Positions 9,864 through 57,839 of a stretch of 64,000 nucleotides of DNA are shown here, in pieces; within the stretch, counting starts at the first letter, position 1; the number at the start of each line of letters is the position of its first letter. The DNA is taken from NCBI GenBank assembly GCA_964576535.1, contig CAZNWB010000001.1, forward strand, positions 243 through 64,242, read 5' to 3'. Made by a program: the position numbers and the translations under genes. This stretch comes from an uncultured bacterium (lineage in GTDB: Bacteria; Methylomirabilota; Methylomirabilia; Methylomirabilales; 2-02-FULL-66-22). Under the pieces are notes generated by a model. That model worked only from the letters and a program-made list of their open reading frames with translations. It was not told where the DNA came from and ran no database searches.

Positions 9864-9990
9864 CCTCACGCCACCTCAATTCAAAATTTTCTCGCGAAGA
9901 CGCCAAGGGCGCTAAGGGGGGTAGTCCTTTTTCACCCTCGTGTGCGTTCTTTGCGTCTTTGCGAGAGAATGGTTTTTCATTGAGCGCCGA

Positions 9991-10671: not shown

Positions 10672-10738
10672 GTAGTTATGTTGTTTCCCTCAGATCGTGT
10701 ATCAAGAACATCGATCGCCGTTCGAGGGCGTGCATGAT

Positions 10739-20020: not shown

Positions 20021-20064
20021 CATTCCGCACTCGGGTACCCTATGGGTGTTCGCCATTCCGCATT
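20021..20064. repeat. about-45-bp dispersed repeat (CATTCCGCAYTCGGGTACCCnnTGGGTGTTCCGCATT family), copy 1
   Basis: CATTCCGCACTCGGGTACCCTATGGGTGTTCGCCATTCCGCATT is preceded by a GGAATGC-unit hairpin. Related copies occur at 42087, 51871, 51944 and 52019. Confidence 0.8.
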
Positions 20065-20860
20065 ATCTTTCCACCCGGATCTTCTCGCCGCGGATGACGA
20101 TCCCGGACGGATCGATCTCACCCCGAAGGACCCGAAGCTCCTCGTCTGTCGGAGGGGCCAGCGCCTCGAGCCGCTCCGCCAGCAACGGCTTGAACTCCAT
20201 GCCCTGGAGGACTTCCGATGCGCTCAAGCCCCTCAGAACCCCCAGGAGCGTCAACCGTTTCGTCTCGTCGTCAAAGCCGAAGAGCGCCCGGGAGGTGACG
20301 ACGCGCCAGGGGCCCGTCCCCCGGGGGAGGCCCGCCTTCTCGCGCCCGCCCGGCCCGCTGAGGTACCCGGGGGACGTCACGAAGTCCAGCCGCTCCACGA
20401 AGCGGCGCGGCTCGTGCTTCATCACCAGGATCGTCCGCCAGCAAAGCGAGGCCACCTCGTTCCCCCCACCGCTCCCCGGGAACCGGCGGCCCGGCCGCTC
20501 GTAGGTCCCACCCAGCAACGTGGAGTTGACGTTGCCATGGGCGTCGATCTGGGCCGCCCCGATCATGCCGTAATCCACGTAGCCGGCGGCGGCATAGGCG
20601 AAGGCCCAGTTCATGTTGCTCCACTGCAGCGACCGATAGACATTCGTGGGGCCCCCCATGGTGCCGCGGACGAAGGGGGTCTGGCTCTGGGGTCCCACCG
20701 CCCCGAACTCGAAGACCTGGACAAGCTGGGGCGTGTACAGCCGCTCGGCCAGCATGGCCACGAGCTGTGGCATCCCCCACCCCACGAAGACCGTCTTCCG
20801 GTCCTCCAGCAGGCGGGCCGCCGTGCAGATCATGAACTCCGTATCGGTGAACTCAACCAT
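20063..20860 (-). CDS. CoA-transferase subunit B (glutaconate CoA-transferase type)
   Basis: Family layout is present (FVGWGMPQ..., GGTYERPGRRFPGSGGG), and it pairs with the subunit A gene upstream. The track start at 20869 is a TTG. I prefer the ATG at 20860, but the boundary is uncertain. Confidence 0.75.
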   Translation of the reverse strand: MVEFTDTEFMICTAARLLEDRKTVFVGWGMPQLVAMLAERLYTPQLVQVFEFGAVGPQSQTPFVRGTMGGPTNVYRSLQWSNMNWAFAYAAAGYVDYGMIGAAQIDAHGNVNSTLLGGTYERPGRRFPGSGGGNEVASLCWRTILVMKHEPRRFVERLDFVTSPGYLSGPGGREKAGLPRGTGPWRVVTSRALFGFDDETKRLTLLGVLRGLSASEVLQGMEFKPLLAERLEALAPPTDEELRVLRGEIDPSGIVIRGEKIRVER

Positions 20861-20947
20861 CTTTTCCAATGCGGAATGGGGAGTGCGGAATGCGGAATAC
20901 CAAGGGAGTTTTCATTCCGCATTCCGAAATCCGCATTCCGAAATCCA

Positions 20948-20996
20948 CCTCACCCTACCCTCTCCCACAACGAGGGAGAGGGGGGTGGGTGAGGGG
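20948..20996. repeat. CCTCACCC...GGGAGAGG...GGGTGAGG hairpin repeat, copy 2
   Basis: CCTCACCCTACCCTCTCCC-ACAACGA-GGGAGAGGGGGGTGGGTGAGGGG lies between CoA-transferase A and B. It follows a GGAATGC/GCATTCC-unit hairpin at 20871-20945. Confidence 0.75.
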
Positions 20997-20997
20997 T

Positions 20998-21966
20998 TCA
21001 GTGATATCCTTCGCGGATGGTGGCACGTCGCGCCAACTCTTGAAGCTTCTGCCGGCCGACCTTCCGATCCAGGAAGTCGGCGTGATCCTGCACCCCGTAG
21101 ATGTATTCGGTGAGATAGGCCTGCATCTGCTCCTCGGTCTGGATGGCGTTCACTTTGTCGATGTGCTCCAGGTCCAGCTCATACCGCGCCTGGACCCCGC
21201 CGGGGTACGCGCCGAAGGGCAGATGCACGACGGCATCCACCAGGAAGTACGGGATCGTGGTCGCGAGGGGATCCTTCCGGAACTCCAACGGGTCCACGAT
21301 CTCCTCGGTGGAGACGATCACTTTCCTGGCGGCCATGGCGGCTTCCAGCGCGAAGAGATTCGTCCCGAAGATGCGCGCGTTCCCGAACACGTCCGCCTGG
21401 TGGACATGGACCAGGAACGCGTCCGGATTCAGGGCCGGCACCAGGCAGATGGGGTCTCCCGTAAAGGGATCGTGCACCACCCTGGCCCCGGAATAGCGCA
21501 GGGTGTCGGTCCCCAGCAGATTTCGCATGGGCATGAAGGGGATGCCGCGCGCACCCGCCAGCATGCGGGACGCCAGTGATCCGTTCGTCCATTCAAAGAC
21601 CCGCACGCGACCTTCGCTCACGGCCCGGCCGATGTAGTTGCCGTAGCCCAGGAACCCGACGTCGATCCGCGAGGCGCAGCCGCTTCCCACCAGGAGCGCG
21701 CTCTCGTGCAGCGTGAACTCCGCGCAGACCCAGAGGTCTTTCCGGCGCTGGCGGATGATCTCTCGGACCAGGGCCTGGGGACCGCGGGTGAGCGAGGAGA
21801 AGTCGTAGGCCAGGTAGTCCCCGTCGGCAACGTAGCGGGTGATGGCCTCGCGCTCGGTCAGGCGCTTCTCGACCATCTCGCGCCGCTTGTGCTGGCGCAC
21901 CCAGTCCCGGAAATCATCCGGATGCGCGAACCGGATCTCCGCCGTCCCCTGCAGGATCGTCTCCAT
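20998..21966 (-). CDS. CoA-transferase subunit A (glutaconate CoA-transferase type)
   Basis: The length (322 aa) and the motifs DGDYLAYDFSS..., ...GIPFMPMRNLLGTD resemble the GctA family. Confidence 0.75.
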   Translation of the reverse strand: METILQGTAEIRFAHPDDFRDWVRQHKRREMVEKRLTEREAITRYVADGDYLAYDFSSLTRGPQALVREIIRQRRKDLWVCAEFTLHESALLVGSGCASRIDVGFLGYGNYIGRAVSEGRVRVFEWTNGSLASRMLAGARGIPFMPMRNLLGTDTLRYSGARVVHDPFTGDPICLVPALNPDAFLVHVHQADVFGNARIFGTNLFALEAAMAARKVIVSTEEIVDPLEFRKDPLATTIPYFLVDAVVHLPFGAYPGGVQARYELDLEHIDKVNAIQTEEQMQAYLTEYIYGVQDHADFLDRKVGRQKLQELARRATIREGYH

Positions 21967-22119: not shown

Positions 22120-23058
22120 TTACAAGCCCGCCTTCCTGAGGACCTCTTCGACGGCCGAGTAGGGGTCGGTTTCACGGGCCGCGATCCGCTCGATCAGCCG
22201 GTCCAGCGTGCCATTGCCGATGACCTTCTCCACGACCCGTCCCGTCACCTGCTCCTGGAGCAGCTCCCAGAACACCCACCGGCTCCGCTCCTTCCCCTTT
22301 TGCCGGCGCCCTTCCGCCGTTTGCATGAAGGCCTGGTGCTCCAGGATGGTCTGGGTGAGCTCGGCGATGCCCTCTCCCTTCACCGCCACGGTCTTCAGCA
22401 CCCTGGGCTGCCATCCCTCCGTCGCCTTGCCTAGGTGCAGCATCATCTCGATCTCGGTGACCGTCTTGTCGGCACCGTCGCGGTCGGCCTTGTTCACCAC
22501 GAAGAGATCCCCGATCTCCATGATGCCGGCCTTGATGGCCTGGATCTCATCCCCCATCCCCGGGACGGCCACCACGACGCTCGTATGGGCGGCCTTGACC
22601 ACTTCCACCTCGTCCTGACCGACGCCCACGGTCTCGATGATCACGTAGTCTTTCCCGGCGGCGTCCAGAATGTCCACCACATCGTTCGTGGCGCGGGCCA
22701 GGCCCCCGAGATGCCCCCGCGTCGCCATGCTGCGGATGAAGACGCCCGGATCCAGGCTGTGGCGCTGCATCCGGATCCGGTCGGCCAGGATGGCGCCGCC
22801 GGTGAATGGGCTGGTGGGGTCCACCGCGACGATGCCAACAGACTTGTCGAGGCGGCGCAGCTCTTCCGTGATCCCGTCCACCAGGGTGCTCTTGCCGGAG
22901 CCTGGCGGACCGGTCACGCCGACGACATAGGCTTTGCCCGTGTGGGGATACAGGGCCTTCAAGGCGGGGATGGCCCCTTGGGTGGCGTTCTCGATCATGC
23001 TCATCAAGCGAGCGGCCGCCCGAATGTCGCCCTGCAGGGTTTTCTGGACGAGGTCCAT
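22120..23058 (-). CDS. meaB: MeaB/ArgK-type G-protein chaperone of B12 acyl-CoA mutases
   Basis: The P-loop is GVTGPPGSGKSTL. The family motifs GVGQDE and NKADRDGA are present, and the size is 312 aa. Confidence 0.85.
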   Translation of the reverse strand: MDLVQKTLQGDIRAAARLMSMIENATQGAIPALKALYPHTGKAYVVGVTGPPGSGKSTLVDGITEELRRLDKSVGIVAVDPTSPFTGGAILADRIRMQRHSLDPGVFIRSMATRGHLGGLARATNDVVDILDAAGKDYVIIETVGVGQDEVEVVKAAHTSVVVAVPGMGDEIQAIKAGIMEIGDLFVVNKADRDGADKTVTEIEMMLHLGKATEGWQPRVLKTVAVKGEGIAELTQTILEHQAFMQTAEGRRQKGKERSRWVFWELLQEQVTGRVVEKVIGNGTLDRLIERIAARETDPYSAVEEVLRKAGL

Positions 23059-23221: not shown

Positions 23222-23268
23222 GAACAGACATGCCTGGGTAATTCGAGAGAGAAAAGGAGCGATTGCCT

Positions 23269-24396
23269 ATGGTGCCGTTTGACGCCAAGAAGCTGGCAGG
23301 TCTCATGGAAGACGCGGGGGTTTCCCTGGTCCTCGCCAGCACCCGCCACAATGTCCGCTATCTTACCGGCGGCTACTACTTCCACTTCCACGAGCGCTTC
23401 ACCCGTATCGGGAGAAGCCAATACCTTCCACTGGTCGGCCTGCCCCACCGGCGCCTCGAAGAGGCCTTCTATACCGGCCGCCCCGACGAGGCAGGTCAGA
23501 TCGAGGCCGAGGGTCTCTGGATCGTCAACCGCCCCACTGCCACGCGCGGCACCGTTGGCGCAGCCGAGGCGGCGGCTGCCGCGACGCAGAAGCTTGGCCT
23601 GGCCAACGCCACCATCGGCGTGGAACTCCCCTTCCTGCCGGCGGACGCCTTTCTCGTCCTCCAGCGGTTGCTGCCGCACGCGCAATTTGTGGATGCCACC
23701 ACGGTCCTAGACGAGTTGCGCGCCGTGAAGAGCGCTGCCGAACTGGCTCACCTGCGGACGGTGTACGACCGGACGGCCCAGGCTATCCAGGCGACCTTTG
23801 CTTCGGGCACGCCAGGCATCACGACCGCGGCCGTCGCTGAGCGCGTCCGCCGGGAGATGGCGGACCGGGGCTTGGAGTTCCTCTGGGCCTTCACCTGCGC
23901 CGGGCCGGGCACCCTGCGGGCGCCCTCCCAGGTCCGGTGGGAGCGGGGACGCGTCCTGCACATTGATGCCGGGGGCGAGGACCGGGACTACCTGGCCGAC
24001 GTCTGCCGGATGGGGTGCCTGGGGGAACCCTCTCCCCTTGCCAGGGAGCTACACGCCGCCTGCCTCGAGGTCCAAGGGCGTGTCCGAAAGATCGTCCGGG
24101 CGGGCTTGCCGTGCAAGGAGGTGCTGGCAGAGGGCGAGCGCGCCGTCCGCGAGAACCGGTTCGCCCTGTACGCTCGCTTCATTGCCCATGGGATCGGCAT
24201 GGTCTCCCACGAGCAGCCGGAGATCACGCCGACCAACTCCCGCGCGCTGGCGGCCGGAATGGTCCTCTCCATCGAGACCGAGTGCATTTATCCCCAGGTC
24301 GGCCACGTGAAGATCGAGGACGCGGTGGCGGTGACGGAGAGAGGGTGCGAGGGACTCGGGGACATCGGTCGCGAGTGGCAGATCGTCCCGGCGTGA
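23269..24396 (+). CDS. M24 family metallopeptidase (Xaa-Pro dipeptidase/creatinase-like)
   Basis: Metal-ligand contexts are present (HIDAGG, YLADVCR, AHGIGM, SIETE, KIEDAV). The ATG at 23269 lies 9 nt after AAGGAG. The track start at 23263 is a TTG. Confidence 0.75.
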   Translation: MVPFDAKKLAGLMEDAGVSLVLASTRHNVRYLTGGYYFHFHERFTRIGRSQYLPLVGLPHRRLEEAFYTGRPDEAGQIEAEGLWIVNRPTATRGTVGAAEAAAAATQKLGLANATIGVELPFLPADAFLVLQRLLPHAQFVDATTVLDELRAVKSAAELAHLRTVYDRTAQAIQATFASGTPGITTAAVAERVRREMADRGLEFLWAFTCAGPGTLRAPSQVRWERGRVLHIDAGGEDRDYLADVCRMGCLGEPSPLARELHAACLEVQGRVRKIVRAGLPCKEVLAEGERAVRENRFALYARFIAHGIGMVSHEQPEITPTNSRALAAGMVLSIETECIYPQVGHVKIEDAVAVTERGCEGLGDIGREWQIVPA

Positions 24397-24413
24397 CCGG
24401 TTTTCCCGCATTT

Positions 24414-25444
24414 GGGGTCAGGCCTTTATAACTTTATTTTCCACGCAAGCGCTCCTCCACCCGACCGACCAGCCGGGCGAGAGTTGGATTCGAGTCGAGG
24501 CGTTGCCGCAGTCGCTGGACTTGGAGGCTGAGAGTCACGGCCGCGCGACGTAACGCCCGGGCAGTCTCCGAATATTGGATGCCAGCAAGGTCGTAACCCA
24601 CGTAGGCGGCAATCGCCCGCGCCGTGGCCAAGTTGCGAACCCGGCTAGGTGTCCGGATGTCGAGCGGCCGCACCCCAGTCACTTCACACGTAGCACGGAC
24701 ACATTCCTCAACCGTCAGGCGGAGCCGCCGATGCTCAGGGCGGATCCTCCCTTTTCGCTCTGCTGTCTCAATGAACGCTTCACTGCCGAGATACCGCTGC
24801 TCGACTAGCTCGTACAAGTCCTCCCGATGGCCTTCGCCCATGCCATCCGCAATGAACCGGCGGTAGGCCGTGCGCCGACGAGGACCTCCTCGGCCGAAAT
24901 GGCCCAGAATCTGTTCCACGGAGACCCAGCTGGAAGGTGCCGACTCCAGGTAGGCCTTGTGACTGCTCCATCCCCATCGTTCCGGCGCCTGGACCAACCC
25001 GGCGCGAACCGGATTCAGATGGAGGTACCGCACAAGGGTGAGAAGATAGGCGTCTCGATCACACAGGATCGCCTTGTAGCGGCCCTGAAAGCAGTGGCCC
25101 GTAAGTCGATATTTCTTGTTGAAGTAGGCCGTGTAGCTTTGCTGGATTCCCTGCATGATCTTCGCCAATGGGACGCTGTCCGTTTCTACCAGTAGGTGGA
25201 TGTGATTCGGCATCAGAACATAGGCGTACACGTGAAAACCATAGCGCTGGTGATATCGCTGTAGGAGGTTTTCGTACCTGGCGTAGTCGCTGGCATCGCG
25301 GAAGGATCGCTGCTTCTGGTTTCCGCGACCCATAACATGGAACAGGGCGCCTGGGAAATCTATGCGAGTCGGGCGTGCCATGGTGCGATTTATAGCCCAA
25401 CATAACATGGAATGGCAATAATAAAGTTATAAAGGCCTGACCCC
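24414..25444 (-). mobile_element. RayT/IS200-like single-gene element bounded by a perfect 25-bp inverted repeat
   Basis: GGGGTCAGGCCTTTATAACTTTATT (24414-24438) is the exact reverse complement of AATAAAGTTATAAAGGCCTGACCCC (25420-25444). The outer ends carry a CCTGACCCCRAAT motif, which is tandemly duplicated at 25438-25462. Confidence 0.8.
24434..25381 (-). CDS. REP-associated tyrosine (HUH, Y1) transposase-like protein with C-terminal DnaA-C-like HTH
   Basis: The HUH motif context is YVLMPNHIHLLVE, and the downstream Tyr region is QQSYTAYFNKKY. The C-terminal segment RNLATARAIAAYVGYDLAGIQYSETARAL looks like an HTH. The start is an ATG at 25381. Confidence 0.8.
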   Translation of the reverse strand: MARPTRIDFPGALFHVMGRGNQKQRSFRDASDYARYENLLQRYHQRYGFHVYAYVLMPNHIHLLVETDSVPLAKIMQGIQQSYTAYFNKKYRLTGHCFQGRYKAILCDRDAYLLTLVRYLHLNPVRAGLVQAPERWGWSSHKAYLESAPSSWVSVEQILGHFGRGGPRRRTAYRRFIADGMGEGHREDLYELVEQRYLGSEAFIETAERKGRIRPEHRRLRLTVEECVRATCEVTGVRPLDIRTPSRVRNLATARAIAAYVGYDLAGIQYSETARALRRAAVTLSLQVQRLRQRLDSNPTLARLVGRVEERLRGK

Positions 25445-25491: not shown

Positions 25492-26643
<1,152 letters not shown>

Positions 26644-26657
26644 TGTTCCTTCAAATG

Positions 26658-26788
26658 AGCGTTCGGTCGTTCGGGGCACCCACGCCACGGCGGTGGAGAT
26701 CCACCGCGGTGCCGTGGGTCCCGGTGGTTCGGTCGTTCTTGATCTGAGGGAACCACCGAACGACCGAACTGCCGAACCGTCGAACGCT
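26658..26788. repeat. CGAAC/GTTCG-unit palindromic intercistronic element, copy A
   Basis: The element runs AGCGTTCGGTCGTTCGG...GGTGGTTCGGTCGTTC-loop-GAACCACCGAACGACCGAACTGCCGAACCGTCGAACGCT. A nested palindrome CCCACGCCACGGCGGTGGAGATCCACCGCGGTGCCGTGGG is inserted in the left arm. Confidence 0.85.
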
Positions 26789-26796
26789 TTATGTTC

Positions 26797-27333
26797 CTAG
26801 GCGGGTACGAAATACACGTCCGTCGGCTTGAACTTGGACAGGCGCTTGAACTGCGCGCGCACCTTCATTCCCACCCAGTCCAGGGACGGCTTGAGCGGGT
26901 CCACCCCCATCAGCCGGGCCAGGAACAGGGTGTTTACCCCCGGCCACTCGACCAGGATGAGGACGAAGGGAGTCTCCTTCAGGAACTCCTCGCTGCCGTA
27001 GTGGCAGACCGTGAAGGTATGGACGTTGCCTTCCTTCGGCAGCTCGACCCAGTCACACTCGCCCCCGCAGTACATGCAGTGCAGCCGGGGCGTGCCGTAG
27101 GTGTACTTGCACGGCGCGCACCGCGTCCCCAGCAGCTTCCCGTTGGCCAGGCCGGCAAAGAAGGGTGAATCCTGGCCGTAGCTGTGGATATAATCAATGT
27201 GATAGGGCTGCTTGATGATGATGGGCGCCATCCCCTTCAGGTCCTTGAGATCCTTGGGGAACGGCACGTTGAACAGGATGGTCCCGTCGTCGGTCTCCGG
27301 GAGCTTCACCCGCTTCATCTCTTTCTCGCTCAT
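26797..27333 (-). CDS. DUF35 OB-fold / zinc-ribbon acyl-CoA-associated protein
   Basis: The start is an ATG at 27333 (MSEKEMK...). The zinc ribbon is CAPCKYTYGTPRLHCMYCG, followed by an OB-fold-like tail. Only the last 179 codons of the 502-aa track ORF are credible. Confidence 0.8.
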   Translation of the reverse strand: MSEKEMKRVKLPETDDGTILFNVPFPKDLKDLKGMAPIIIKQPYHIDYIHSYGQDSPFFAGLANGKLLGTRCAPCKYTYGTPRLHCMYCGGECDWVELPKEGNVHTFTVCHYGSEEFLKETPFVLILVEWPGVNTLFLARLMGVDPLKPSLDWVGMKVRAQFKRLSKFKPTDVYFVPA

Positions 27334-27335
27334 GG

Positions 27336-28649
27336 CTAGAACCCCTTCTCGAGGATCGAGACCACGACGTAGGTCCCCGTGCCGGCGTGGCTGTGGATGG
27401 CCCCACGCCGTGCGTTTTTCACCTGGAGCTGCTCGCTGCCGAAGTGCTTCCCGATACTCCCCTGGAGCTGCCACAGGGCGAAGACCGCCTGCATGAGACC
27501 CGTGGCCCCCACGGGATGACCGCAGGCAATGAGGCCTCCTGACGGGTTCACCGGGATCGTTCCCTGCTCCGAAAAGGGATACCCGTAATCCAGGTTCGGC
27601 ATGAAGGGCTTGCCGGCCTCGACGAACTTGCCCCCCTCTCCGTAGCGGCAGAGGCCCATGTCCTCGTAGGTCTGGATCTCGGACGAGGTGTAGGCGTCGT
27701 GCAGCTCGATGAAGTTTAGCTCCGCGATCGGGTTGGTGATCCCGGCCATCTGGTAGGCGGTCTTGGACGCCATGCGCCCGGCCCGGAACGAGTGGACCCC
27801 GGGATACTTCAACCCCTTGTAATCCTCGGCCTTCTCGTGGGGGAGCCGAATGACCTCGGCGTGGGGCCGGTCCGCCATTCGCATGGTGTCGATGCCTCCA
27901 CCTACGCCGGTCACCTTGGCGGGCTTTGGCCGGCGGCCCGTGGCCTTCTCCAGCTTGTTCAAACCCTCCTCGCTGGCAAGAATGACGACGGCCGCGCCAT
28001 CGCTCATAACGCAGATGTCCAGCATGGTGAGGGGCCAGGCCACCATCTCCGAGGCCCGGACATCCTCGATTCGGATCTTCATCCGCTTCTGGGCGTATGG
28101 GTTGTGCAAGGCGTTGTTGTGATTCTTCACCGAGACCAGCGCCATCTGCTCCACGGAGGTTCCGAACTCCTGCATGTGGCGGACCACCATCATGGCGTAA
28201 TAGCCGGAGTAGAAGCCGCCCACCGGGTAGTCGAAGCTCACATCCGAGGCCAGGGCGATGAACTCGTTCCCCTTCCATGTATTCACGTGGGACATCGTTT
28301 CCCAACCGTACACGACGCAGAGGTCAAACCGGCCGGAGGCCACGGTCTCCCACCCCGACTGGAATGCCACCCCACCCGTGGCACCCCCCGCCTCAATGCG
28401 CTTGGTGGGCTTGGGACACAGGCCCAGGTAGTCCTGGACCATGCTCCCCGCCTTGAGCTGGCGCATGAAGTGATCCGAGAAATAGGACGCCACGGTCCCG
28501 TCCACGATCTCGGCGGCCTTCCGGAATTCCAGCCCGATGTCCTTGAGGGCGTAATCGTACGCCTCCTTGACCATCGCCTGGAACGTCACGTCCGGCCGTG
28601 CCTTGGCGAACTTGCTGACCCCCCCCGAAACCAGGTACACGGGTCGCAT
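27336..28649 (-). CDS. SCP2-thiolase-fold protein lacking the nucleophilic cysteine (Ltp2-like, candidate aldol-lyase)
   Basis: Thiolase-fold motifs are present (NPSGGLIACGHPVGATG). The position of the nucleophile reads IEAGGATGG, where thiolases carry C in NNNCATGS / ACASG. The gene is adjacent, across a 2-nt gap, to the DUF35 gene. Confidence 0.7.
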   Translation of the reverse strand: MRPVYLVSGGVSKFAKARPDVTFQAMVKEAYDYALKDIGLEFRKAAEIVDGTVASYFSDHFMRQLKAGSMVQDYLGLCPKPTKRIEAGGATGGVAFQSGWETVASGRFDLCVVYGWETMSHVNTWKGNEFIALASDVSFDYPVGGFYSGYYAMMVVRHMQEFGTSVEQMALVSVKNHNNALHNPYAQKRMKIRIEDVRASEMVAWPLTMLDICVMSDGAAVVILASEEGLNKLEKATGRRPKPAKVTGVGGGIDTMRMADRPHAEVIRLPHEKAEDYKGLKYPGVHSFRAGRMASKTAYQMAGITNPIAELNFIELHDAYTSSEIQTYEDMGLCRYGEGGKFVEAGKPFMPNLDYGYPFSEQGTIPVNPSGGLIACGHPVGATGLMQAVFALWQLQGSIGKHFGSEQLQVKNARRGAIHSHAGTGTYVVVSILEKGF

Positions 28650-28682: not shown

Positions 28683-29087
28683 TCACCTGGGTTTCACGTT
28701 GGTCTTCACGAAGGCAATGGCATCCTGGGTGCTGGCACCCGGCGTGTAGACTTCGGCGATCCCGCAGGCCTTCAGCTTGGGGATGTCCTCGTCAGGAATG
28801 GTGCCCCCGCCAAAGACCAGGACGTCGTCCGCACCCCGGGCCTTCAGGAGTTCCATCACCTTGGGAAATAGATGCATGTGGGCCCCGGAGAGGCAGCTCA
28901 TGCCGATGACGTCCACGTCTTCCTGGATGGCGGCGCTCACGATCATCTCCGGCGTCTGCCGTAACCCGGTGTAGATGACCTCCATCCCCGCGTCGCGAAA
29001 CGCCCGCGCAATGACTTTCGCTCCTCGGTCGTGTCCATCTAATCCCGGTTTGGCAATCAATACTCGAATCTTCCGCTCATTGGTCAT
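28683..29087 (-). CDS. B12-binding small subunit of a split acyl-CoA mutase (IcmB-like)
   Basis: The start is an ATG at 29087 ([25 protein letters not shown]). The DxHxxG cobalamin motif is present, and the size is about 134 aa. Confidence 0.9.
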
Positions 29088-29118
29088 GGCTCTGTCCCCT
29101 GGCCCCTGGCCCCCGTCT

Positions 29119-30819
29119 CTAAATGATATTCGGCTCCGTGTACTCGCCCCACGCCTCGCGCAAGACGCCGATGATCTCGCCCACCGTCGCCTGGGCCTTG
29201 ACTGCCTCCAAGATCTTCGGCATGAGCACGTCTTTCCCCCACGGGTCCTTGCCCAGGGCGGCGGCGCGCAGATCGTCAATCGCGCGATTCCACCGGTCCT
29301 TGTCCCGGCTCTTTCGAAGCGAGGCCAGGCGCTCCACCTGCTTCCGGTGCAGTGCCTCGTCAATGAGGAGAATGGGGATCGGGCGCTGCTCATTGTCATC
29401 CACGAAGCGGTTCACGCCCACGATCACCTTCTCCCCCCGCTCCACCGCCCGCTGGTAGGCATAGGCGGAGTTGGCAATCTCCTGCTGCGGGAATCCCAAC
29501 TCGATGGCACGAACCATCCCGCCCAGCTCGTCAATGCGGCGCAGGTAGTCGAGGGCCCCTTCCTCCATCTCGTCGGTCAGCCGCTCGATGAAATAGGACC
29601 CGGCCAGCGGGTCAATGGTATTGGTCGCGCCCGTTTCGTGCGCGATCACCTGCTGCGTCCGGAGGGCGATGGTCACCGCCTCTTGCGTGGGCAGGGCGTA
29701 GGCTTCGTCCATGGAGTTGGTGTGCAACGACTGGGTACCGCCCAGGACGCCGGCGAGGGCCTGGAGGGCCACCCGGGCGATGTTCACGTACGGCTGCTGC
29801 GCCGTGAGGGACACCCCGGCGGTCTGGGCGTGGGTCCGGAGCATCCAGGAGCGGGGATTCTTGGCCTTGAACCGCTCCCGCATCAGGCGCGCCCACAGCC
29901 GACGAGCCGCGCGGAACTTGGCGATCTCCTCGAAGAGATCGTTGTGGATGTCCCAGAAGAACGAAAGCCGCGGCGCGAAGTCGTCCACGTCCAGACCGGC
30001 TCGGATCCCTTCCTCGACATAGGTGACGCCGTCGGCGATGGTAAAGGCCAGCTCCTGCAGCGCGGTGGCGCCCGCCTCGCGGATGTGATACCCGCTGATG
30101 CTGATGGTGTTCCACTTGGGGAAGTGCCGGCTGCCGAACAGGATGGTGTCGGTCACGAGGCGGAGCGACGGCTTCAAGGGAAAGATGTATTCCTTCTGGG
30201 CGATGTACTCCTTCAGGATGTCGTTCTGGAGCGTCCCCCCGATGTCGTCGTGGGCGACCCCCATCTGCTCGCACACCGCGATGTACATGGCCCATGCCAC
30301 CGCCGCGGTCGAGGTGATCGTCATGGAGGTGGTGACCTTGTCCAGGGGCAGGCCGCGGAACAGGACCTCCATGTCCTGAATCGAGTCGATGGCCGCCCCG
30401 CACTTCCCCACTTCGCCAAACGCCAAGGGATGATCGGAATCGTACCCCATGAGGGTCGGCAGGTGGAACGCCACCGACAGGCCCATCTGCCCCTGTCCCA
30501 GGAGATACCGGTAGCGCTGGTTGGTCTCCTCGGCCGAGCCAAAGCCCGAGTACTGCCGCATGGTCCAGAGCCTGCCCCGGTACATCGTGGACTGGACCCC
30601 GCGGGTGAACGGATACTCCCCGGGAAATCCCAGGTCCTTTCGGTAATCCAGCTCAGGGACGTCCAGGGGCGTGTATAGGCGTTCGATCGGTTTCCCGGAC
30701 ACGGTGGTGAACCGGTCGGACAGTTCCGGGGCCCGGTCCACATGCGGCCCCAGCGTCTCTCGTTCCCAACGGGCCTTGTCCTGTTTCAGCCGCTCAATTT
30801 CTTCCGGGTCGAACGTCAT
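29119..30819 (-). CDS. acyl-CoA mutase large (substrate-binding) subunit, IcmA-like
   Basis: Mutase motifs are present ([53 protein letters not shown]). The size is 566 aa and the RBS is GGAGGGG. Confidence 0.9.
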
Positions 30820-30888: not shown

Positions 30889-30946
30889 CCCCTCGCCCCC
30901 ACCCCGCCCCCGGCGGGGTACCCGGGAGAGGGTTAGAGTGAGGGGG
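30889..30946. repeat. CCCTC...GGGAGAGGGTTAGAGTGAGGGGG hairpin repeat, copy 3
   Basis: The sequence is CCCCTCGCCCCCACCCCGCCCCCGGCGGGGTACCCGGGAGAGGGTTAGAGTGAGGGGG. It overlaps the last codons of the acyl-CoA dehydrogenase at 30933 and contains a CCCCGCC-n-GGCGGGG mini-hairpin. Confidence 0.65.
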
Positions 30947-32081
30947 AAAGAAGGTGTCGGGAAATGATCAGCCGGTGGACCTCCGACGTGCCCTCGTAGA
31001 TCGTCAGGACCCGGGCGTCTCTGGCGTAACGCTCCACCGGGAAATCCTGAAGATAGCCGTACCCGCCGTGAATCTGCACGGCCTCGTAGGCTGCGCGGTT
31101 GGCGACTTCGGACGCGAAAAGCTTGGCCATCGAGGCCTCCGCGGTGAATGACAGGCCGCGATCCTTCCGCACGGCCGCGCGGAACGTCAAGAGGCGTGCG
31201 GCCTCGATCTCCGTGGCCATGTCGGCCAGCTTCCACTGGATCGCCTGGAAGTTTCCGATCGGCTGCCCGAACTGCCGGCGCTCCTTGGCATACCGGATCG
31301 AGGCATCCAGGCAGGCCTGGGCGATGCCCACCGCCTGGGCCGCGATGCCCGCCCGCCCGTTGACCAAAGAGGCCATGGCGATCTTGAAGCCCTCGCCCTC
31401 CTCTCCGATCCGGTTCTCGATTGGGACGTGGCAGTCTTCCAGCACGAGTTCGACCGTATCTGACGCCCGGAGGCCCATCTTCTCTTCGCGCTTCCCGACC
31501 CGGAACCCCGCCATCGAGGGCGCGACCAGGAACGCCGTGATTCCCTTGTCACCCTGGGACGGGTCACTGGATGCGAACAGAATGATGACCCCGGCACGAC
31601 TCCCGCTCGTCACGAAGAGCTTTGTCCCGTTCAGGACGTAGTGTGCTCCCCGCCGCACGGCCGCCGTCCGGAGGCTTGCCGCATCGCTCCCGCTCGTGGG
31701 CTCGCTCAAGGAGAAGGCGCCCAGGATCTCGCCGCGGCAGAGGGCGGGCAGGTACGTCCGCCGCTGGGTCTCCGTGCCGTAGCGGTAGATGATCTCGCAG
31801 GTCAAGGTGTTGTGGAGGGATACCGTCACGGCGGTACTGGCGCAGGCCCGGCTGATCTCCATCAGGGCCAGGCAACTGCTGACGGTATCCGCGCCCGCCC
31901 CGCCGTATTCCGGCGGCAGCGTCATTCCCAGGATGCCCAGATCCGCCAGGCGCTGCAGGGGCTTCTCCGGAAACTGTTTAAGCCGATCCAGCTCGCCCGC
32001 GAGCGGCGCGAGCTCTTTCTCGGCGAACTCCCGCACCGTGTCGCGGATCAGGCGCTGCGCGTCCGTGAGCTGAAAGTTCAT
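30933..32081 (-). CDS. acyl-CoA dehydrogenase
   Basis: The N-terminus is MNFQLTDAQ... and the C-terminus is IYEGTSEVHRLIISRHLL. The size is 382 aa. Confidence 0.9.
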   Translation of the reverse strand: MNFQLTDAQRLIRDTVREFAEKELAPLAGELDRLKQFPEKPLQRLADLGILGMTLPPEYGGAGADTVSSCLALMEISRACASTAVTVSLHNTLTCEIIYRYGTETQRRTYLPALCRGEILGAFSLSEPTSGSDAASLRTAAVRRGAHYVLNGTKLFVTSGSRAGVIILFASSDPSQGDKGITAFLVAPSMAGFRVGKREEKMGLRASDTVELVLEDCHVPIENRIGEEGEGFKIAMASLVNGRAGIAAQAVGIAQACLDASIRYAKERRQFGQPIGNFQAIQWKLADMATEIEAARLLTFRAAVRKDRGLSFTAEASMAKLFASEVANRAAYEAVQIHGGYGYLQDFPVERYARDARVLTIYEGTSEVHRLIISRHLLSPSL

Positions 32082-32180: not shown

Positions 32181-34154
32181 CTAAAGTGAACGTGCCACCA
32201 GCTCCGCCAGATCCATCGCCTTCATCTGCTCCGTCGCGTCCTTGGCCCGGAGGCCATCCTCGAACATCGTGAGGCAGAAGGGACAGGCCGTCCCCACCAC
32301 GTCCGGCTTGACCCGCAGCGCCTCTTCGGTCCGCTCGATATTCACCCGTTTTCCGATCCGCTCCTCGAACCACATCATGCCGCCGCCGGCGCCGCAGCAG
32401 AACCCCTGTTCCCGGTTGCGCTCCATCTCTTTCGTCTGCACCCCCGGCAGCATCTGGAGGATCTGGCGCGGCGCTTCGAAGATCCCGTTGTGCCGGCCCA
32501 GGTAGCAGGCATCGTGGTACGCGATGGTCTGCTCGATCGGCTTGCTGGGTGTAACCCGGCCCTGCTGCAGGAGATCGTTGATCAGGACCGAGTGGTGGGT
32601 CACCTGGTAGTGGCCGCCGAACTGCCCGTATTCGTTCTGAAGGGTGTTGAAGCAGTGTGGGCACGCCGTGATGATCTTCTTCACGCCGTACCCGTTCAGC
32701 GTCCCGATGTTGGCCTGGGCCTGCATCTGGAACAGGAACTCGTGGCCGATCCGCCGAGCGGGATCGCCGGTGCAGCGCTCGCCCTCTCCCAGGATGGCAA
32801 AATCCACCCCAGCCGCCTGGAGCACCTGCACCAGGGCCCGGGCCACCTTCTGGGTGCGGTCGTCAAAGGCGGCGGCACAACCCACCCAGTACAGGTACTC
32901 GGCCGAGCCCTTCTCCGCAAGCAGTGGGACGTCCAGGCCTTGGGCCCACGCCGTCCGGCTGGGGACCGCCCCCTGATAGGGGTGGCCGCGCGTCTCCATC
33001 CCCCGCATGGCCGCCTGCATGGGCTCAGGGAATCGCGCCTCTTCCATGACCAGGAAGCGCCGCATGTTGATGATCTTGGGAATGGGCTCGATCAAGACCG
33101 GACACGCCTGATGGCAGGCGCCGCACGTGGTACAGGCCCAGAGCACGTCCTCGCTGATGATGCCGCCGACCATCGGCTTGCCGTTCCCTTTGCCTTTGCT
33201 CTTGGCCAGCAGGTGGTCGCGGAGGTCAATAATGAGCCCCTTGGGTGTCAGAGGCTTTCCCGTGGCCCAGGCCGGGCAGGCATCCTGGCACCGCCCGCAC
33301 TCCGTGCAGGCCATGAGGTCCAGGAGGTCCTTGCGGGGGAAGCCCTGGATCGTCGAGATGCCGAAGTGCTCCGCCTCTTCCAGGGCGACCGGCTGGATCA
33401 CGCCCGAGGGCTGCGGCCGGCGCAGGGCGATATTGGCCCCCGCCGCCAGGATATGACGGATCAGCGTGTACGGGAGCAGGGCGATGAACCCGAAGGCCAG
33501 GACCGCGTGTCCCCACCACGCCACCCGGTGCCACTGGGCCTGCTGGGATTGGGGGAAGCCCGCAAAGCCAAGGCCCGCCACCCAGCCCCCCGGGGACCAG
33601 AGCCCCCAGGGGTCCCGGGTAGCCACGATCCGCAACCCCTCGACCACGAAGCCGCTCACCAGGATCGCGAGAAACAACCAGAGAAAGAGACCGTAGCCCT
33701 CGGCGTCCCTCGGCTTCCACAACCGCGCCGGCCGTGCGCCGTACCGCCGGACCAGCGCGACGATCACCCCCAGCACCGCGGCCACGCCGAACAGGTCCAC
33801 GGTCAGGGACATGAAGTAGAGGTAGAAATTGCCCGAGAGCGTTGGCAGACCCAGGTAATCCTGGAGGGCGACGAGGCAGGTGGCGATGAACAACACCCCG
33901 AACCCCCAGGAGATGGCGGCATGCAGGCTTCCCCCCAGCGGCTGCGCGAGCAGCCGGCGCTGCAGCACCGCCTGCTGCAGGATCTCGCCAATCTGGCGGC
34001 CAAGCGGGGGGATGTCCTTGTCCGGCTGTCCGAGCGCGAGGACCTTGACGAAGCGGTAGCACCCGTAGAGGAAGATCGCCAGAAAAGGGAGGAAGAGAGG
34101 ATACATCCAAAGATGCGCGGGGATGTTCCAGTAGATTTCCCGGGAAGGGATCAT
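32181..34154 (-). CDS. membrane-bound (Fe-S) oxidoreductase, HdrD/GlpC-like with N-terminal polytopic domain (ETF:quinone-type)
   Basis: About 250 aa of hydrophobic N-terminus is followed by two CxxCxxCxxxCP motifs (CTECGRCQDACP, CTTCGACHQACP) and two CCG-type cysteine-rich domains (FCCGAGGG). It lies immediately downstream of etfBA. Confidence 0.8.
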   Translation of the reverse strand: MIPSREIYWNIPAHLWMYPLFLPFLAIFLYGCYRFVKVLALGQPDKDIPPLGRQIGEILQQAVLQRRLLAQPLGGSLHAAISWGFGVLFIATCLVALQDYLGLPTLSGNFYLYFMSLTVDLFGVAAVLGVIVALVRRYGARPARLWKPRDAEGYGLFLWLFLAILVSGFVVEGLRIVATRDPWGLWSPGGWVAGLGFAGFPQSQQAQWHRVAWWGHAVLAFGFIALLPYTLIRHILAAGANIALRRPQPSGVIQPVALEEAEHFGISTIQGFPRKDLLDLMACTECGRCQDACPAWATGKPLTPKGLIIDLRDHLLAKSKGKGNGKPMVGGIISEDVLWACTTCGACHQACPVLIEPIPKIINMRRFLVMEEARFPEPMQAAMRGMETRGHPYQGAVPSRTAWAQGLDVPLLAEKGSAEYLYWVGCAAAFDDRTQKVARALVQVLQAAGVDFAILGEGERCTGDPARRIGHEFLFQMQAQANIGTLNGYGVKKIITACPHCFNTLQNEYGQFGGHYQVTHHSVLINDLLQQGRVTPSKPIEQTIAYHDACYLGRHNGIFEAPRQILQMLPGVQTKEMERNREQGFCCGAGGGMMWFEERIGKRVNIERTEEALRVKPDVVGTACPFCLTMFEDGLRAKDATEQMKAMDLAELVARSL

Positions 34155-34308: not shown

Positions 34309-35292
34309 TTAGCCTTGAATCAACTCCCGGCACTTCTCGATGAACTTGGGGAGGACTGCCTTGAAGTCACCCACCACCCCGAGATGGGCGACCTTGAAGA
34401 TCGGCGCGTCGGGGTCGGTGTTGATCGCCACGATGGTCTTGGCGCTGGTCATGCCTGCCAGATGCTGGGTGGCACCGGAGATCCCCACGGCGATATACAG
34501 ATCGGGGCTGACGGTCTTTCCCGTCTGCCCGACCTGCCAGGAGGCGGGCACCCACCCGGCATCCGTGGCGGCCCGCGACGCGCCTACCGCCCCCTTGAGA
34601 ATCTGTGCTAGCTCCTCGAGCTGCTTGAAGGCCTCGGGGCCCTTCAGGCCGCGCCCGCCGCTCACGACCACCCGAGCGTTCTCCAGCTTGACGCCACGGA
34701 CCTCCTCGGCGACCCGCTCCAGGACCTTGGTGCGGACCACGGACGCGTCCAGGGAAACCGGGACCGAAACCTCTTCGCCCACGCGCCCCGCCTGCTCCGG
34801 GGCCGGGGCCATCATCCGGGGCTTGACCGTGGCCACCACGGGAAACCGCCGGGTGCTGATCGCCGCGATCGTCCGCCCCCCGTACATCTGGCGACGGAAG
34901 ACGACCTCGGAGCCCTCGCCCTCTATTGCAATCACCTCGGTCACCACTCCGCCGCCAAGCCTGTGGGCCAGACGCGGGGCCACCTCCTTGCCCAGCGAGT
35001 CGTCTGCCAAGAGCACAATCTGAGCCTTGGCTTGCCCGGCAACCTGGGCCAGCACGCTCACGTACGCGTCCGCCTGGACTCCATTCAAGAGGGAATGCTC
35101 CGCCCGGAAGACCTGGTCCGCTCCGTACGCGAACACACGCTTAGAAAGCCCCGTGGTCGCGCTTGCCAGTACCGCGGCCTGCACTTTCCCCCGGGTGGCG
35201 TCCGCCACCTGCCGGGCCGCCCCCAGGAGCTCCAGCGTATTCTGCGAGGGAACGCCTGCCTGCCCATCGGCCAGCACCAGGACATCGGTCAT
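34309..35292 (-). CDS. etfA: electron transfer flavoprotein alpha subunit
   Basis: The C-terminal FAD domain signature is [28 protein letters not shown], and the RBS is GGGAGGAGG. Confidence 0.9.
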
Positions 35293-35378: not shown

Positions 35379-36179
35379 TTAGATCACCTTGAGTTCCCGC
35401 AGGCGCAGGGCGAGCCGTCCAGCCTTCTCGTCCGGCGTGTCCCCGTCCAGCAGCTCGCACCGCGACTCGCGCTTCGGCACATACACATCCATGATCTGCA
35501 GCCGAGCGGCCCCGGCCCCGACCCTGGCAGCATCCAGGTTCAGGTCCGCCCCCTTCCACGTCGGCACCTGCTTCTTGGCCGCCGCCATGATGTCCTTCAG
35601 CTTGGAGTACCGGGGCACGTTGGTGTCGTCGCTGACAACGGTCACCACGAGGGGGAGCGGCGCCTCCACCCGCTCGTACCCATCCTCCACGATCCGGCGC
35701 GCCACGGCCTTGCCGGCCGTGACCTCGATCCGGCTGGCAAAGGTCACGCAGGGAAGATCCATCTCCTCGGCGAGAAGCGGCCCGACCACCTTGTTGCCCG
35801 TATCGGCCGACACGCACCCCGTCAGAATCAGGTCTGCCGTCCCGATCTTTCGAATGGCCTGAGCCAGCACGTGGGCCACCCCGAAGGAATCGCTGTCCGG
35901 CAGGGACGGATCGCTGACGAGGACTCCGTCATCCACTCCCATGCCCAGGGCGCTCTTGACCGCCGACATGGCCCCCGCCTCCCCCAGGCAGAGGGCCGTG
36001 ACCTTCCCGCCCGTCTTCTCCCGCAGTTGCAGCGCCACCTCCAAGGCATTCTGGTCGTAGGCGCTGATAACCAGGGACAGGCCGCCGCGGACCTGCCGCT
36101 TGGTGGCCGGGTCCAGCTTGAATTGGTCGGTCGGGATCTCGGGATCAATGATTTGTTTGATGCAGACGACGATGTGCAT
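35379..36179 (-). CDS. etfB: electron transfer flavoprotein beta subunit
   Basis: The N-terminus MHIVVCIKQIIDPE is typical of EtfB. The start is an ATG at 36179. The track start at 36182 is a GTG one codon upstream. Confidence 0.9.
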   Translation of the reverse strand: MHIVVCIKQIIDPEIPTDQFKLDPATKRQVRGGLSLVISAYDQNALEVALQLREKTGGKVTALCLGEAGAMSAVKSALGMGVDDGVLVSDPSLPDSDSFGVAHVLAQAIRKIGTADLILTGCVSADTGNKVVGPLLAEEMDLPCVTFASRIEVTAGKAVARRIVEDGYERVEAPLPLVVTVVSDDTNVPRYSKLKDIMAAAKKQVPTWKGADLNLDAARVGAGAARLQIMDVYVPKRESRCELLDGDTPDEKAGRLALRLRELKVI

Positions 36180-36212
36180 CACGCGACTCCCAGGGTGCAG
36201 ATACTAGAATTA

Positions 36213-36301: not shown

Positions 36302-37441
36302 TTAGGATAGAAGAGCGTTGGCGATTACCATCCGCTGCACCTCGGAGGTGCCCTCGTAGATCTCGGTGATCTTCGCGTCACGCATGAACCGCTGCGCGGG
36401 ATAGTCCATCATGTAGCCGTAGCCCCCGAAGATCTGGACGCCCTTGACGCCGCAGCGCATCGCCACCTCGGAGGCGTACAGCTTGGCCATGGCGGATTCG
36501 CGGGTGTACCGCACGCCCTGGTCCTTCAACAGGGCAGCGCTCAGGACGAGCAGGCGGGCCGCGTCAATTTCCGTGGCCATGTCGGCCAGCATGAACTGGA
36601 TAGCCTGGTTCGCCGCGATGGGCTTCCCGAACTGCACCCGCTGCTTCGAGTAGTCCAGCGAGGCCTCCAGCGCCGCCCGGGCGATTCCCACTGCCTGGGC
36701 AGCGATCCCGATCCGTCCGCCGTCGAGCGCCTTTAGGGCGATCTTGAACCCCTCGCCTTCCTTTCCCAGGAGGTTGGCCGCCGGGACCCGGCAGTTCTCC
36801 AGAGTGATCTGGGCACAACTGCTCCCGCGGATTCCCAGCTTCTTCTCCAGGTGGGCCACGCTGAACCCCGGCGTCCCGCGTTCCACCACGAAGGCGCAGA
36901 TCCCCTTGTGCTTTAATTCCTTGCTAACCGTGGCAAAGACAATCGCATATTCGGCCTCGGCGCCGTTGGTAATGAAGTTCTTGGTTCCGTTCAGGGCGTA
37001 GAAATCGCCCTCGCGCCTGGCGGTCGTCTCCTGGTTAGCGGCGTCGCTGCCCGCATTGGGCTCACTCAGGCAGAAACAGCCGATGGTTTTGCCGCTGGCC
37101 ACGGGGACGAGGAACCGCCGTTTCTGCTCCTCCGTGCCGAACCGCACCAAGGGATCGCAGTAGAGCGAGTTGTTCACCGTCATGATGACGCCGTGGGAGG
37201 CACAGGCCCGGCTGATCTCCTCCAGCGCCACCACGTAGCAGACGGTGTCCGCCCCCGCCCCGCCATACTCCTGGGGCACCCCGATGCCCATGAAACCCAG
37301 CGCTCCCAGCTTCAGGATGGTCTCATGGGGAAACTGCCCCTGCTCGTCCACCTTCTCGGCGATGGGCGCGATCTCCTTGTCGGCGAACTGCCGCGCCGTC
37401 TCCTGGAACATCCGCTGCTCGTCGGTCAGCTCAAAATCCAT
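36302..37441 (-). CDS. acyl-CoA dehydrogenase (short/medium-chain type)
   Basis: The N-terminus is MDFELTDEQ... and the C-terminus is IYEGTSEVQRMVIANALL. The size is 379 aa. Confidence 0.9.
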   Translation of the reverse strand: MDFELTDEQRMFQETARQFADKEIAPIAEKVDEQGQFPHETILKLGALGFMGIGVPQEYGGAGADTVCYVVALEEISRACASHGVIMTVNNSLYCDPLVRFGTEEQKRRFLVPVASGKTIGCFCLSEPNAGSDAANQETTARREGDFYALNGTKNFITNGAEAEYAIVFATVSKELKHKGICAFVVERGTPGFSVAHLEKKLGIRGSSCAQITLENCRVPAANLLGKEGEGFKIALKALDGGRIGIAAQAVGIARAALEASLDYSKQRVQFGKPIAANQAIQFMLADMATEIDAARLLVLSAALLKDQGVRYTRESAMAKLYASEVAMRCGVKGVQIFGGYGYMMDYPAQRFMRDAKITEIYEGTSEVQRMVIANALLS

Positions 37442-37559: not shown

Positions 37560-38342
37560 TCAGCGGCCCGTGAAGTTGGCCTTCCGCTTGTCCAGGAACG
37601 CCTGGATCCCCTCCACGTGATCCTCGGTGGTGAAACAGAGGCTCCAGGCCTTGGCCTCGATCTCCATGCCGCTGGCCAAGTCCACCTGGGAGCCCGCCTC
37701 GATGGCCTCTTTCACCATCCGCAGGGTGACGTCGCTCTTGCTGAGGATCTTCGCGCAGAGCTTCTGCACCTCGGCCATCAGCTCCCCCGCCGGCACCACC
37801 TTGCATACCAGCCCGATCCGCAGCGCCTCCTCGGCCGAGAGCATGTCTCCCGTCATCTCGAGTTCCTTGGCCTTCTGCTTTCCCACCAGGCGTGACAGGC
37901 GCTGGGTCCCCCCGGCGCCCGGGATGATGCCCAAATTGATCTCCGGCTGGCCCATCTTGGCCGTGTCGGCGGCATAGGCGATGTCGCAGGCCATCATCAG
38001 CTCGCAGCCGCCCCCCAGGGCGAAGCCGTTGACCGCCGCGATCGTCGGCTTGGACACGGTCTCCAGCTTCCGGAAGATCCGCTGGGCGTTCCGGCTGAAG
38101 TCCAGGGCCGGCATCGGTCCCATCCCCACGAACTCCCGGATGTCCGCCCCTGCGGCAAAGGCGCGGTCCCCCGACCCGGTGATCACCACGACGCGCGCCG
38201 CGGGGTCCGCCGCCACCTGATCAAAGGCCGCGTCCAGCTCCCGGAACATCTGCCGGTTCAGGGCGTTCAGTTGCTGGGGTCGGTTCAACGTGATGGTAGC
38301 GATCCCCTCCTTCACGGTCACGACAATCGTCTCGAATCCCAT
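37560..38342 (-). CDS. enoyl-CoA hydratase (crotonase family)
   Basis: The start is an ATG at 38342 (MGFETIVVTVKEGIATITLNRPQQLNAL). The oxyanion-hole context is FAAGADI...GGGCELMMACD. Confidence 0.85.
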   Translation of the reverse strand: MGFETIVVTVKEGIATITLNRPQQLNALNRQMFRELDAAFDQVAADPAARVVVITGSGDRAFAAGADIREFVGMGPMPALDFSRNAQRIFRKLETVSKPTIAAVNGFALGGGCELMMACDIAYAADTAKMGQPEINLGIIPGAGGTQRLSRLVGKQKAKELEMTGDMLSAEEALRIGLVCKVVPAGELMAEVQKLCAKILSKSDVTLRMVKEAIEAGSQVDLASGMEIEAKAWSLCFTTEDHVEGIQAFLDKRKANFTGR

Positions 38343-38377: not shown

Positions 38378-39229
<852 letters not shown>

Positions 39230-40543: not shown

Positions 40544-40577
40544 TGCTCTCTCCTCTGCCCGCAGGCTCCCCGGCGCC

Positions 40578-49398: not shown

Positions 49399-49436
49399 TC
49401 GCCCATCCGCATCGGCCCCGAGAGCCGCGGAGCATC

Positions 49437-51835: not shown

Positions 51836-51870
51836 GGCATTCCCCCTCCTTCCGTGTTGCACTGCCATGG

Positions 51871-57698: not shown

Positions 57699-57724
57699 TC
57701 ACGAAAATTCCCGTCAGCCGCCTT

Positions 57725-57824: not shown

Positions 57825-57839
57825 TCAGCGTTGCGGCGG

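Follow-up and report, generated by a model that had tools for sequence, protein, structure and literature searches.

The window, a stretch of 64,000 nucleotides from an uncultured bacterium of the Methylomirabilota, encodes on its minus strand a two-subunit, B12-dependent acyl-CoA mutase within an operon of short-chain acyl-CoA oxidation genes. The genes and their products are listed below in the order in which they occur from the operon head.

40578-41258, minus strand: TetR-family regulator, at the operon head (also the first gene of the cluster in the related locus L002)
39365-40615, minus strand: acetyl-CoA C-acetyltransferase, a true thiolase
38378-39229, minus strand: 3-hydroxybutyryl-CoA dehydrogenase (Hbd), 283 aa by translation; the orthologous gene in loci L081 and L082 has 3HCDH_N and 3HCDH domains
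37560-38342, minus strand: short-chain enoyl-CoA hydratase (crotonase), 260 aa (PF00378; NF004475, 324 bits)
36302-37441, minus strand: short-chain Bcd-like acyl-CoA dehydrogenase (ACAD) 3
35379-36182, minus strand: EtfB
34309-35292, minus strand: EtfA
32181-34154, minus strand: membrane FeS/CCG oxidoreductase, with two CCG and 4Fe-4S dicluster domains, the presumed link from ETF to quinone
30933-32081, minus strand: short-chain Bcd-like ACAD 2
29119-30819, minus strand: mutase large subunit, IcmA-like, substrate-binding TIM barrel, 566 aa (Pfam PF01642 MM_CoA_mutase, 740 bits; TIGR00641, 770 bits)
28683-29087, minus strand: mutase small subunit, IcmB-like, B12-binding, 134 aa (PF02310, 96 bits; TIGR00640, 178 bits)
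27336-28649, minus strand: thiolase-fold protein without either catalytic cysteine
26797-27333, minus strand: DUF35 partner, with a ChsH2-type zinc ribbon and OB fold, 178 aa (PF01796, PF12172)
25492-26688, minus strand: short-chain Bcd-like ACAD 1
22120-23058, minus strand: MeaB-type G-protein chaperone (PF03308, 309 bits; TIGR00750, 353 bits against a cutoff of 241)
20063-21966, minus strand: two-subunit CoA-transferase (PF01144), also found downstream of MeaB in loci L083 and L082

An IS200-like transposase and an M24 peptidase are encoded between ACAD 1 and MeaB, and genes for a BCAA-type ABC transporter, acyl-CoA synthetases and an IOR-family 2-oxoacid:ferredoxin oxidoreductase lie near the operon. 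The large-subunit gene has a GGAGG 5′ of its ATG, and the small-subunit gene follows 31 nt downstream on the same strand. A first, sequence-only reading of this DNA had described a split IcmAB-like mutase of 566 and about 134 aa, surrounded by a Cys-less thiolase-fold protein with DUF35, three ACADs, a hydratase, Hbd and a thiolase; both reading frames, their family profiles and the neighbouring genes bear this out. Judged by its predicted products, the operon is a complete module that converts butyryl-CoA into two acetyl-CoA, with an electron outlet through ETF and the membrane FeS oxidoreductase. The window contains no cobalamin riboswitch and no second mutase paralogue.

In the small subunit, the His-on cobalamin motif DxHxxG reads DGHDRG (residues 17-22) and the SxL...GG motif reads SCL...GGG (residues 64-95). 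None of the NCBIfam equivalog models claims the large subunit: the methylmalonyl-CoA mutase (MCM) model scores 631 bits against a cutoff of 876, and the IcmF model (NF045497) 312 bits against a cutoff of 1500. Among PDB chains compared by HMMER, HcmA is the best match of the large subunit (4R3U; 581 bits, about 47% identity); MCM follows with about 480 bits and IcmF (4XC6) with 256 bits. To our knowledge, no structure of a split isobutyryl-CoA mutase (ICM) has been solved, and HcmA is the top match for this reason; the ranking shows only that the protein belongs to the ICM/HCM branch.

Specificity residues of the large subunit

MCM holds the carboxylate of its substrate with Tyr89 and Arg207. 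We take the corresponding positions of ICM to be Phe80 and Gln198, and the determinants of HCM to be Ile90 and Asp117, where Asp117 is the hydroxyl-binding residue. The following codons of the query occupy these columns or lie next to them.

30550-30552, minus strand: TAC, Tyr90, in the column of MCM Tyr89, ICM Phe and HCM Ile90
30463-30465, minus strand: CAC, His119, in the column of MCM Asp118 (AFD[LM]PT)
30196-30198, minus strand: CAG, Gln208, in the column of MCM Arg207 and of the Gln of ICM and HCM

The HMMER alignments to PDB chains set Tyr90 opposite Tyr89 of P. shermanii MCM, in a column that reads RQF in the Y89F mutant entry (5REQ) and RQI in HcmA (4R3U). They set Gln208 (AQKEY) opposite the Arg of 1REQ and 2XIJ (FMVRNTYI in MCM) and opposite the Gln of HcmA. 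Both columns are identical in a MAFFT alignment of 165 sequences and no alignment shift removes the pair, so that Tyr and Gln stand where the first reading had placed them. Its further statement that Tyr/Gln lies outside the pairs of characterized mutases holds as well. The pair is found in about 60 distinct 90%-identity clusters of metagenomic origin among the matches listed, and it is therefore no sequencing accident. By comparison, it occurs in none of the 128 full-length 50%-identity representatives that were aligned. Across this representative library, the superfamily has dozens of further uncharacterized residue pairs.

A substitution rarer than Tyr90, which the first reading had missed, is His119, which aligns with MCM Asp118 and HCM Asp119. 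Of the 128 aligned representatives, all have Asp there except P0264 (His) and P0207 (Ser). Where HCM has Asp117 the query has Ala117, and Tyr-His (243/244) is conserved between the query and MCM. An AlphaFold model of the large subunit (pLDDT 76.6), used for its secondary structure only, puts Tyr90 at the end of strand 88-90 and His119 directly after the neighbouring barrel strand 113-118. Gln208 or His119, and not the substrate, may be the bonding partner of the Tyr90 hydroxyl.

Comparison with characterized mutases

At every compared site except position 90, the motifs of the query, including AQKE and PTLMG, follow the pattern of the Phe/Gln proteins. The subunits are split, Gln stands at the Arg207 position, the large subunit groups with Phe/Gln sequences and the small subunit has the cobalamin motifs; the ICM signature Phe is absent from the query but present in orthologues of the same operon. 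By sequence comparison, the protein is thus classed as a two-subunit mutase of the ICM lineage, with the Phe/Gln signature given in the literature as the anchor. A Streptomyces plasmid copy considered as an IcmA anchor proved by its motifs to be a split MCM. The query resembles IcmA/IcmB (EC 5.4.99.13; Streptomyces cinnamonensis, and the split cluster of Syntrophothermus lipocalidus) in the sizes of its split subunits, in its MeaB and in the downstream genes for butyryl-CoA oxidation, as well as in the motifs above. It differs in having Tyr for the signature Phe, His for Asp two residues past the HCM Asp117 position, no adenosyltransferase gene in the operon and the Cys-less thiolase-fold/DUF35 pair immediately downstream.

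Public sources annotate this mutase as 'methylmalonyl-CoA mutase', which would make it an MCM of the split (archaeal/clostridial) type. We regard this assignment as highly improbable. The query does share with MCM (1REQ, 2XIJ and the split forms) the fold, the radical mechanism and Tyr at the Tyr89 position, and it is 56-57% identical to the split MCMs of Ilyobacter and the Streptomyces plasmid. Those proteins, however, read RQYAGFG or RMYAGFS, PTQ[MI]G (PTQMG in Streptomyces, PTQIG in Ilyobacter) and IARGTYIFP, whereas in the query the carboxylate-binding Arg207 is replaced by Gln, ARGT by AQKE and Asp118 by His. Epimerase and decarboxylase genes flank the mutase in the Ilyobacter locus; in contrast, no epimerase, propionyl-CoA carboxylase or decarboxylase was found among the scanned open reading frames of the window. 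The query also nests within the Phe/Gln clade, and we reject the MCM identity that the annotation and Tyr90 would suggest.

HcmA/HcmB (4R3U) likewise has split subunits and the conserved Gln208, and is the best match of solved structure. 4R3U and the Mycobacterium ELW1 plasmid copy, both HCM-type, are nevertheless distinguished by RQIAGFG, xDFDMPTLMG, NISGYHISEAG and QTAAATL. In the query, Tyr90 and Ala117 stand in place of Ile90 and Asp117 and the other motifs are of the ICM type, which rules out HCM itself. IcmF would catalyse the same predicted reaction and, by offset arithmetic on the PDB alignment, has Gln at the position of Gln208. It is a fusion of ICM and MeaB in one chain of about 1090 aa, unlike the separate mutase and MeaB genes found here, and the query scores only 256 bits to 4XC6.

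Residue switching among close relatives

The 120 best database matches are proteins of NC10/Methylomirabilota metagenome bins, and among the matches listed they fall into six groups by the motifs around positions 90, 119 and 208. The query's own group (RQY-S / VAFH / AQKE) is 82-100% identical to it, followed by an RMY-S / VAFH group (about 80%) and an RQF-S / VAFH group (77-82%). In a sister subclade of four clusters (RQY-S / VAFH / AEKE), Gln is replaced by Glu. More distant are an RQY-S / xAFD group (69-75%) and an RMF-A / xAFD group (66-72%), the latter including Ca. Methylomirabilis limnetica. In GTDB contigs, searched with one genome per species, the best 80 loci are 58-70% identical and belong to Acidobacteriota, Chloroflexota and Methylomirabilota. 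The 64 mutase copies that could be parsed from them are without exception Phe/Gln (17 loci were unparsed). In the 50%-identity library, the representative of the query's cluster is P0121, a Phe/Gln protein of 61% identity.

In a neighbour-joining tree computed from Kimura distances, without bootstrap or other support values, the Tyr sequences form one clade nested inside Phe/Gln clades of Methylomirabilota, and HcmA branches outside the query's clade. We infer that Phe probably changed to Tyr while Asp was kept, that Asp then changed to His, and that about three independent reversions from Tyr to Phe and one branch with Gln changed to Glu came afterwards. Only 20 positions consistently set the query clade apart from the sister Phe/Gln sequences; among them are 90, 91, 119, 171, 289 and 369, located in barrel strands or close to them. 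The fixed changes at 91, 171, 289 and 369, together with His119, could have retuned the specificity.

Conservation of the operon

The gene order of the window is shared by relatives on both sides of the residue switch. A Phe revertant (P0053) has an identical order from the thiolase through the last ACAD. The locus of an RMY variant with Arg-Met-Tyr (P0052, locus L082) has the same core, with an adenosyltransferase where the window has the ACAD upstream of the mutase, and also encodes MeaB and an SCFA transporter; its crotonase was not called and its thiolase is off-contig. A Tyr/Asp variant (P0069) keeps the mutase, thiolase-fold protein, DUF35 partner, ACAD, MeaB and CoA-transferase, and two Phe/Gln loci (L002 and L001) have the same neighbours as the window. 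In related loci, the FeS/CCG oxidoreductase again adjoins EtfAB and MeaB directly follows an ACAD. The Tyr and Phe forms are orthologues in one operon, not paralogues in separate contexts.

The thiolase-fold and DUF35 genes are separated by 2 nt. Compared with the archaeal thiolase 6ESQ, the thiolase-fold protein reads EAGGATG for EAACASG and HDAY for HDCF, and five orthologues from three phyla (67-80% identity) retain this Cys-less state. The thiolase-fold protein and its DUF35 partner, 67-80% conserved as a pair, adjoin ICM-type mutases in Methylomirabilota, Terriglobia and Anaerolineales; the pair is highly conserved and has no role in a simple route from ICM to beta-oxidation.

Candidate functions of the mutase

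The sequence-only reading had taken Tyr/Gln to signal a new substrate that is uncharged yet polar. Here Tyr90, possibly together with His119, would retune the pocket, with the Tyr hydroxyl forming a hydrogen bond with a substrate hydroxyl. The candidates would be 2-hydroxyisobutyryl-/3-hydroxybutyryl-CoA, an HCM-like reaction reached in another way, or 3-hydroxyisobutyryl-/4-hydroxybutyryl-CoA, a reduced analogue of the MCM reaction. The rarity of the pair speaks for such a substrate (0 of the 128 aligned representatives and 0 of the 64 parsed GTDB relatives), as do the retention of Tyr in about 60 clusters, the His in place of an almost invariant Asp where a neighbouring barrel strand ends, the Hbd and crotonase within the operon, the rank of HcmA among PDB matches and the change from Gln to Glu in the sister subclade, which suggests an evolving pocket.

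Against such a substrate stand Phe revertants in an identical operon, Phe/Gln-lineage orthologues with the same neighbours, the absence of the HCM residues and motifs, and a PDB ranking that reflects the lack of a solved split ICM. The only AbfD-like gene of the window (50390-51934) lies 20 kb from the mutase, and a link to 4-hydroxybutyryl-CoA through it is weakened because it has no Fe-S cysteine motif. We therefore think it unlikely that the pocket has been retuned for a polar substrate. To a similarly small degree, we entertain the broader form of this proposal, in which the Tyr90/His119/Gln208 clade and its Tyr/His/Glu sister subclade would have a specificity not yet described for acyl-CoA mutases, possibly the isomerization of hydroxy-acyl-CoAs in concert with an aldolase-like thiolase-fold/DUF35 pair. 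The nesting of the Tyr clade in Phe/Gln orthologues of the same operon, the roughly three reversions to Phe, the ICM type of the other compared motifs and an operon that supplies what an isobutyryl-CoA mutase needs downstream all count against the earlier claim, which the analysis does not support.

A third possibility is that an ICM-clade enzyme acts mainly on C5 acyl-CoAs (isovaleryl-/pivalyl- or valeryl-/2-methylbutyryl-CoA) in the catabolism of leucine or isoleucine, with the three ACADs and an aldolase-like thiolase-fold/DUF35 pair processing the branched intermediates. More than one branched substrate is suggested by the three paralogous short-chain ACADs, the BCAA-type ABC transporter, the IOR-family oxidoreductase and the Cys-less pair, and IcmF is known to have a pivalyl-CoA mutase side activity. 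However, smaller residues at the Tyr90 position favour pivalyl-CoA mutase activity and Tyr is bulkier than Phe; no C5-specific gene, such as one for methylcrotonyl-CoA carboxylase, was found among the scanned open reading frames of the window. A main role in C5 metabolism is, in our judgement, quite doubtful.

We consider it probable that the locus encodes an IcmAB-type isobutyryl-/butyryl-CoA mutase through which branched C4 units enter the beta-oxidation of butyryl-CoA, and that Tyr90 is a tolerated, lineage-specific variant. A tolerated Tyr90 is the most economical account because Tyr and Phe alternate in an unchanged operon and the other ICM-type motifs are intact. The family, the motifs, the place in the tree and the conserved operon follow from the comparisons above; the substrate, the direction of the reaction and the neutrality of the Tyr we infer as follows. 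Isobutyryl-CoA would arise from valine or isobutyrate through the IOR-family oxidoreductase, an acyl-CoA synthetase or the CoA-transferase. The small subunit would hold adenosylcobalamin (AdoCbl) in the base-off/His-on state through DxHxxG, with MeaB acting as the cofactor-loading chaperone, while the acyl-CoA is threaded through the TIM barrel of the large subunit. Homolysis of the Co-C bond would generate the 5′-deoxyadenosyl radical, which would abstract a hydrogen from the substrate, and a 1,2-migration of the thioester carbonyl would interconvert isobutyryl-CoA and butyryl-CoA. Tyr90 would replace the usual Phe and leave this reaction unaltered. In the cell, the enzyme would convert isobutyryl-CoA into butyryl-CoA, which the Bcd-type ACADs, EtfAB, the membrane FeS oxidoreductase, crotonase, Hbd and thiolase would then convert into two acetyl-CoA. 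A comparable arrangement is described for isobutyrate degradation in Syntrophothermus lipocalidus, where a cluster of split ICM, ATR and MeaB is followed by beta-oxidation to two acetyl-CoA (PMC5017805).

Should the enzyme prove to be a plain ICM, the public annotation as 'methylmalonyl-CoA mutase' would be corrected, the textbook Phe/Gln signature would be seen to tolerate Tyr, and a residue pair alone would be insufficient for calling specificity. The locus and its relatives would also document a conserved module from valine or isobutyrate to acetyl-CoA in uncultured Methylomirabilota. Against a plain ICM count the Tyr kept in about 60 clusters, the His119 that replaces a near-invariant Asp, the fixed changes at 91, 171, 289 and 369, the Glu of the sister subclade and the conserved Cys-less thiolase-fold/DUF35 pair. 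If Tyr90 and His119 do retune the specificity, the enzyme would add a new reaction to the small set of B12-dependent carbon-skeleton mutases that are of interest for metabolic engineering.

Thiolase-fold partner and mutase specificity residues

The mutase operon contains a pair of genes that recurs beside related mutases in other genomes.

26797-28649, minus strand: thiolase-fold protein and its DUF35 partner

The thiolase-fold protein reads GGATG and HDAY, so that both the nucleophilic Cys and the Cys of the HDCF motif are absent. Counterparts of the pair are found in five related loci from other genomes (L001, L006, L051, L082 and L083), where the thiolase-fold protein, together with its DUF35 partner, shows 67-80% identity across Methylomirabilota, Terriglobia and Anaerolineales. 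In every case, the window included, the pair adjoins an ICM-type mutase. The pair is reminiscent of the Ltp2/ChsH2 aldolase logic; despite this likeness, the top matches of the thiolase-fold protein are an archaeal thiolase and BbsB.

Within the mutase large subunit, one further residue departs from the superfamily pattern.

30463-30465: codon for His119, which stands in place of Asp in the AFD[LM]PT motif

Across the acyl-CoA mutase superfamily, only two of 128 aligned 50%-cluster representatives lack this Asp. A small number of Phe/Gln proteins from Acidobacteriota (loci L032, L048, L049 and L059) have acquired the same His independently. A sister subclade (mutase proteins P0048, P0056, P0058 and P0067) shares the Tyr/His combination, carries Glu for Gln at the Arg207 position, and reads HMREAG. 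Its member P0048 is encoded at 10001-11701 of locus L081, where the mutase is flanked by truncated FeS and ACAD genes and there is no thiolase-fold/DUF35 pair. The state of L081 could reflect either a decaying operon or a further change of specificity.

Probable insertion into the mutase operon

Two genes (23263-25408) separate the last acyl-CoA dehydrogenase from MeaB.

24434-25408, minus strand: IS200-like Y1 transposase with a DnaA-C HTH domain
23263-24396, plus strand: M24 peptidase

Because the dehydrogenase and MeaB are direct neighbors in L082 and L083, this segment appears to have been inserted between them.

Other genes in the window

50390-51934, minus strand: HpaB/AbfD-family protein (closest solved structures 6VJR and 1U8V, 277 bits)
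45934-49878, minus strand: fused IOR-family 2-oxoacid:ferredoxin oxidoreductase (NF009589, 1459 bits)
57723-57826, minus strand: SAM riboswitch (RF00162, 90.9 bits)
8946-9869, minus strand: stand-alone homocysteine S-methyltransferase
9991-10671, minus strand: stand-alone B12-binding protein
10739-12019, minus strand: PaaK-like CoA ligase, beside the preceding two
6461-7456, plus strand: 2,4-diaminopentanoate dehydrogenase-like protein (NF040740, 269 bits versus a cutoff of 400)

The closest solved relatives of the HpaB/AbfD-family protein are 4-hydroxybutyryl-CoA dehydratase, and its Fe-S cysteine motif is lost (TCFQRC to VLIKEI). The longest oxidoreductase ORF encodes 1314 aa, of which the N-terminal ~160 residues are unmatched; its true start therefore probably lies further downstream. 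The riboswitch is located upstream of a sulfur-carrier/cysteine-type cluster that encodes a PALP enzyme with a NinF zinc ribbon, ThiS, a JAB protein, a ThiS-ThiF fusion and more PALP enzymes; at related locus L084, a comparable NIL/PALP/ThiS set adjoins the mutase operon. The separate methyltransferase and B12-binding genes resemble a split MetH, and the 2,4-diaminopentanoate dehydrogenase-like gene hints at ornithine or diamino-acid catabolism.
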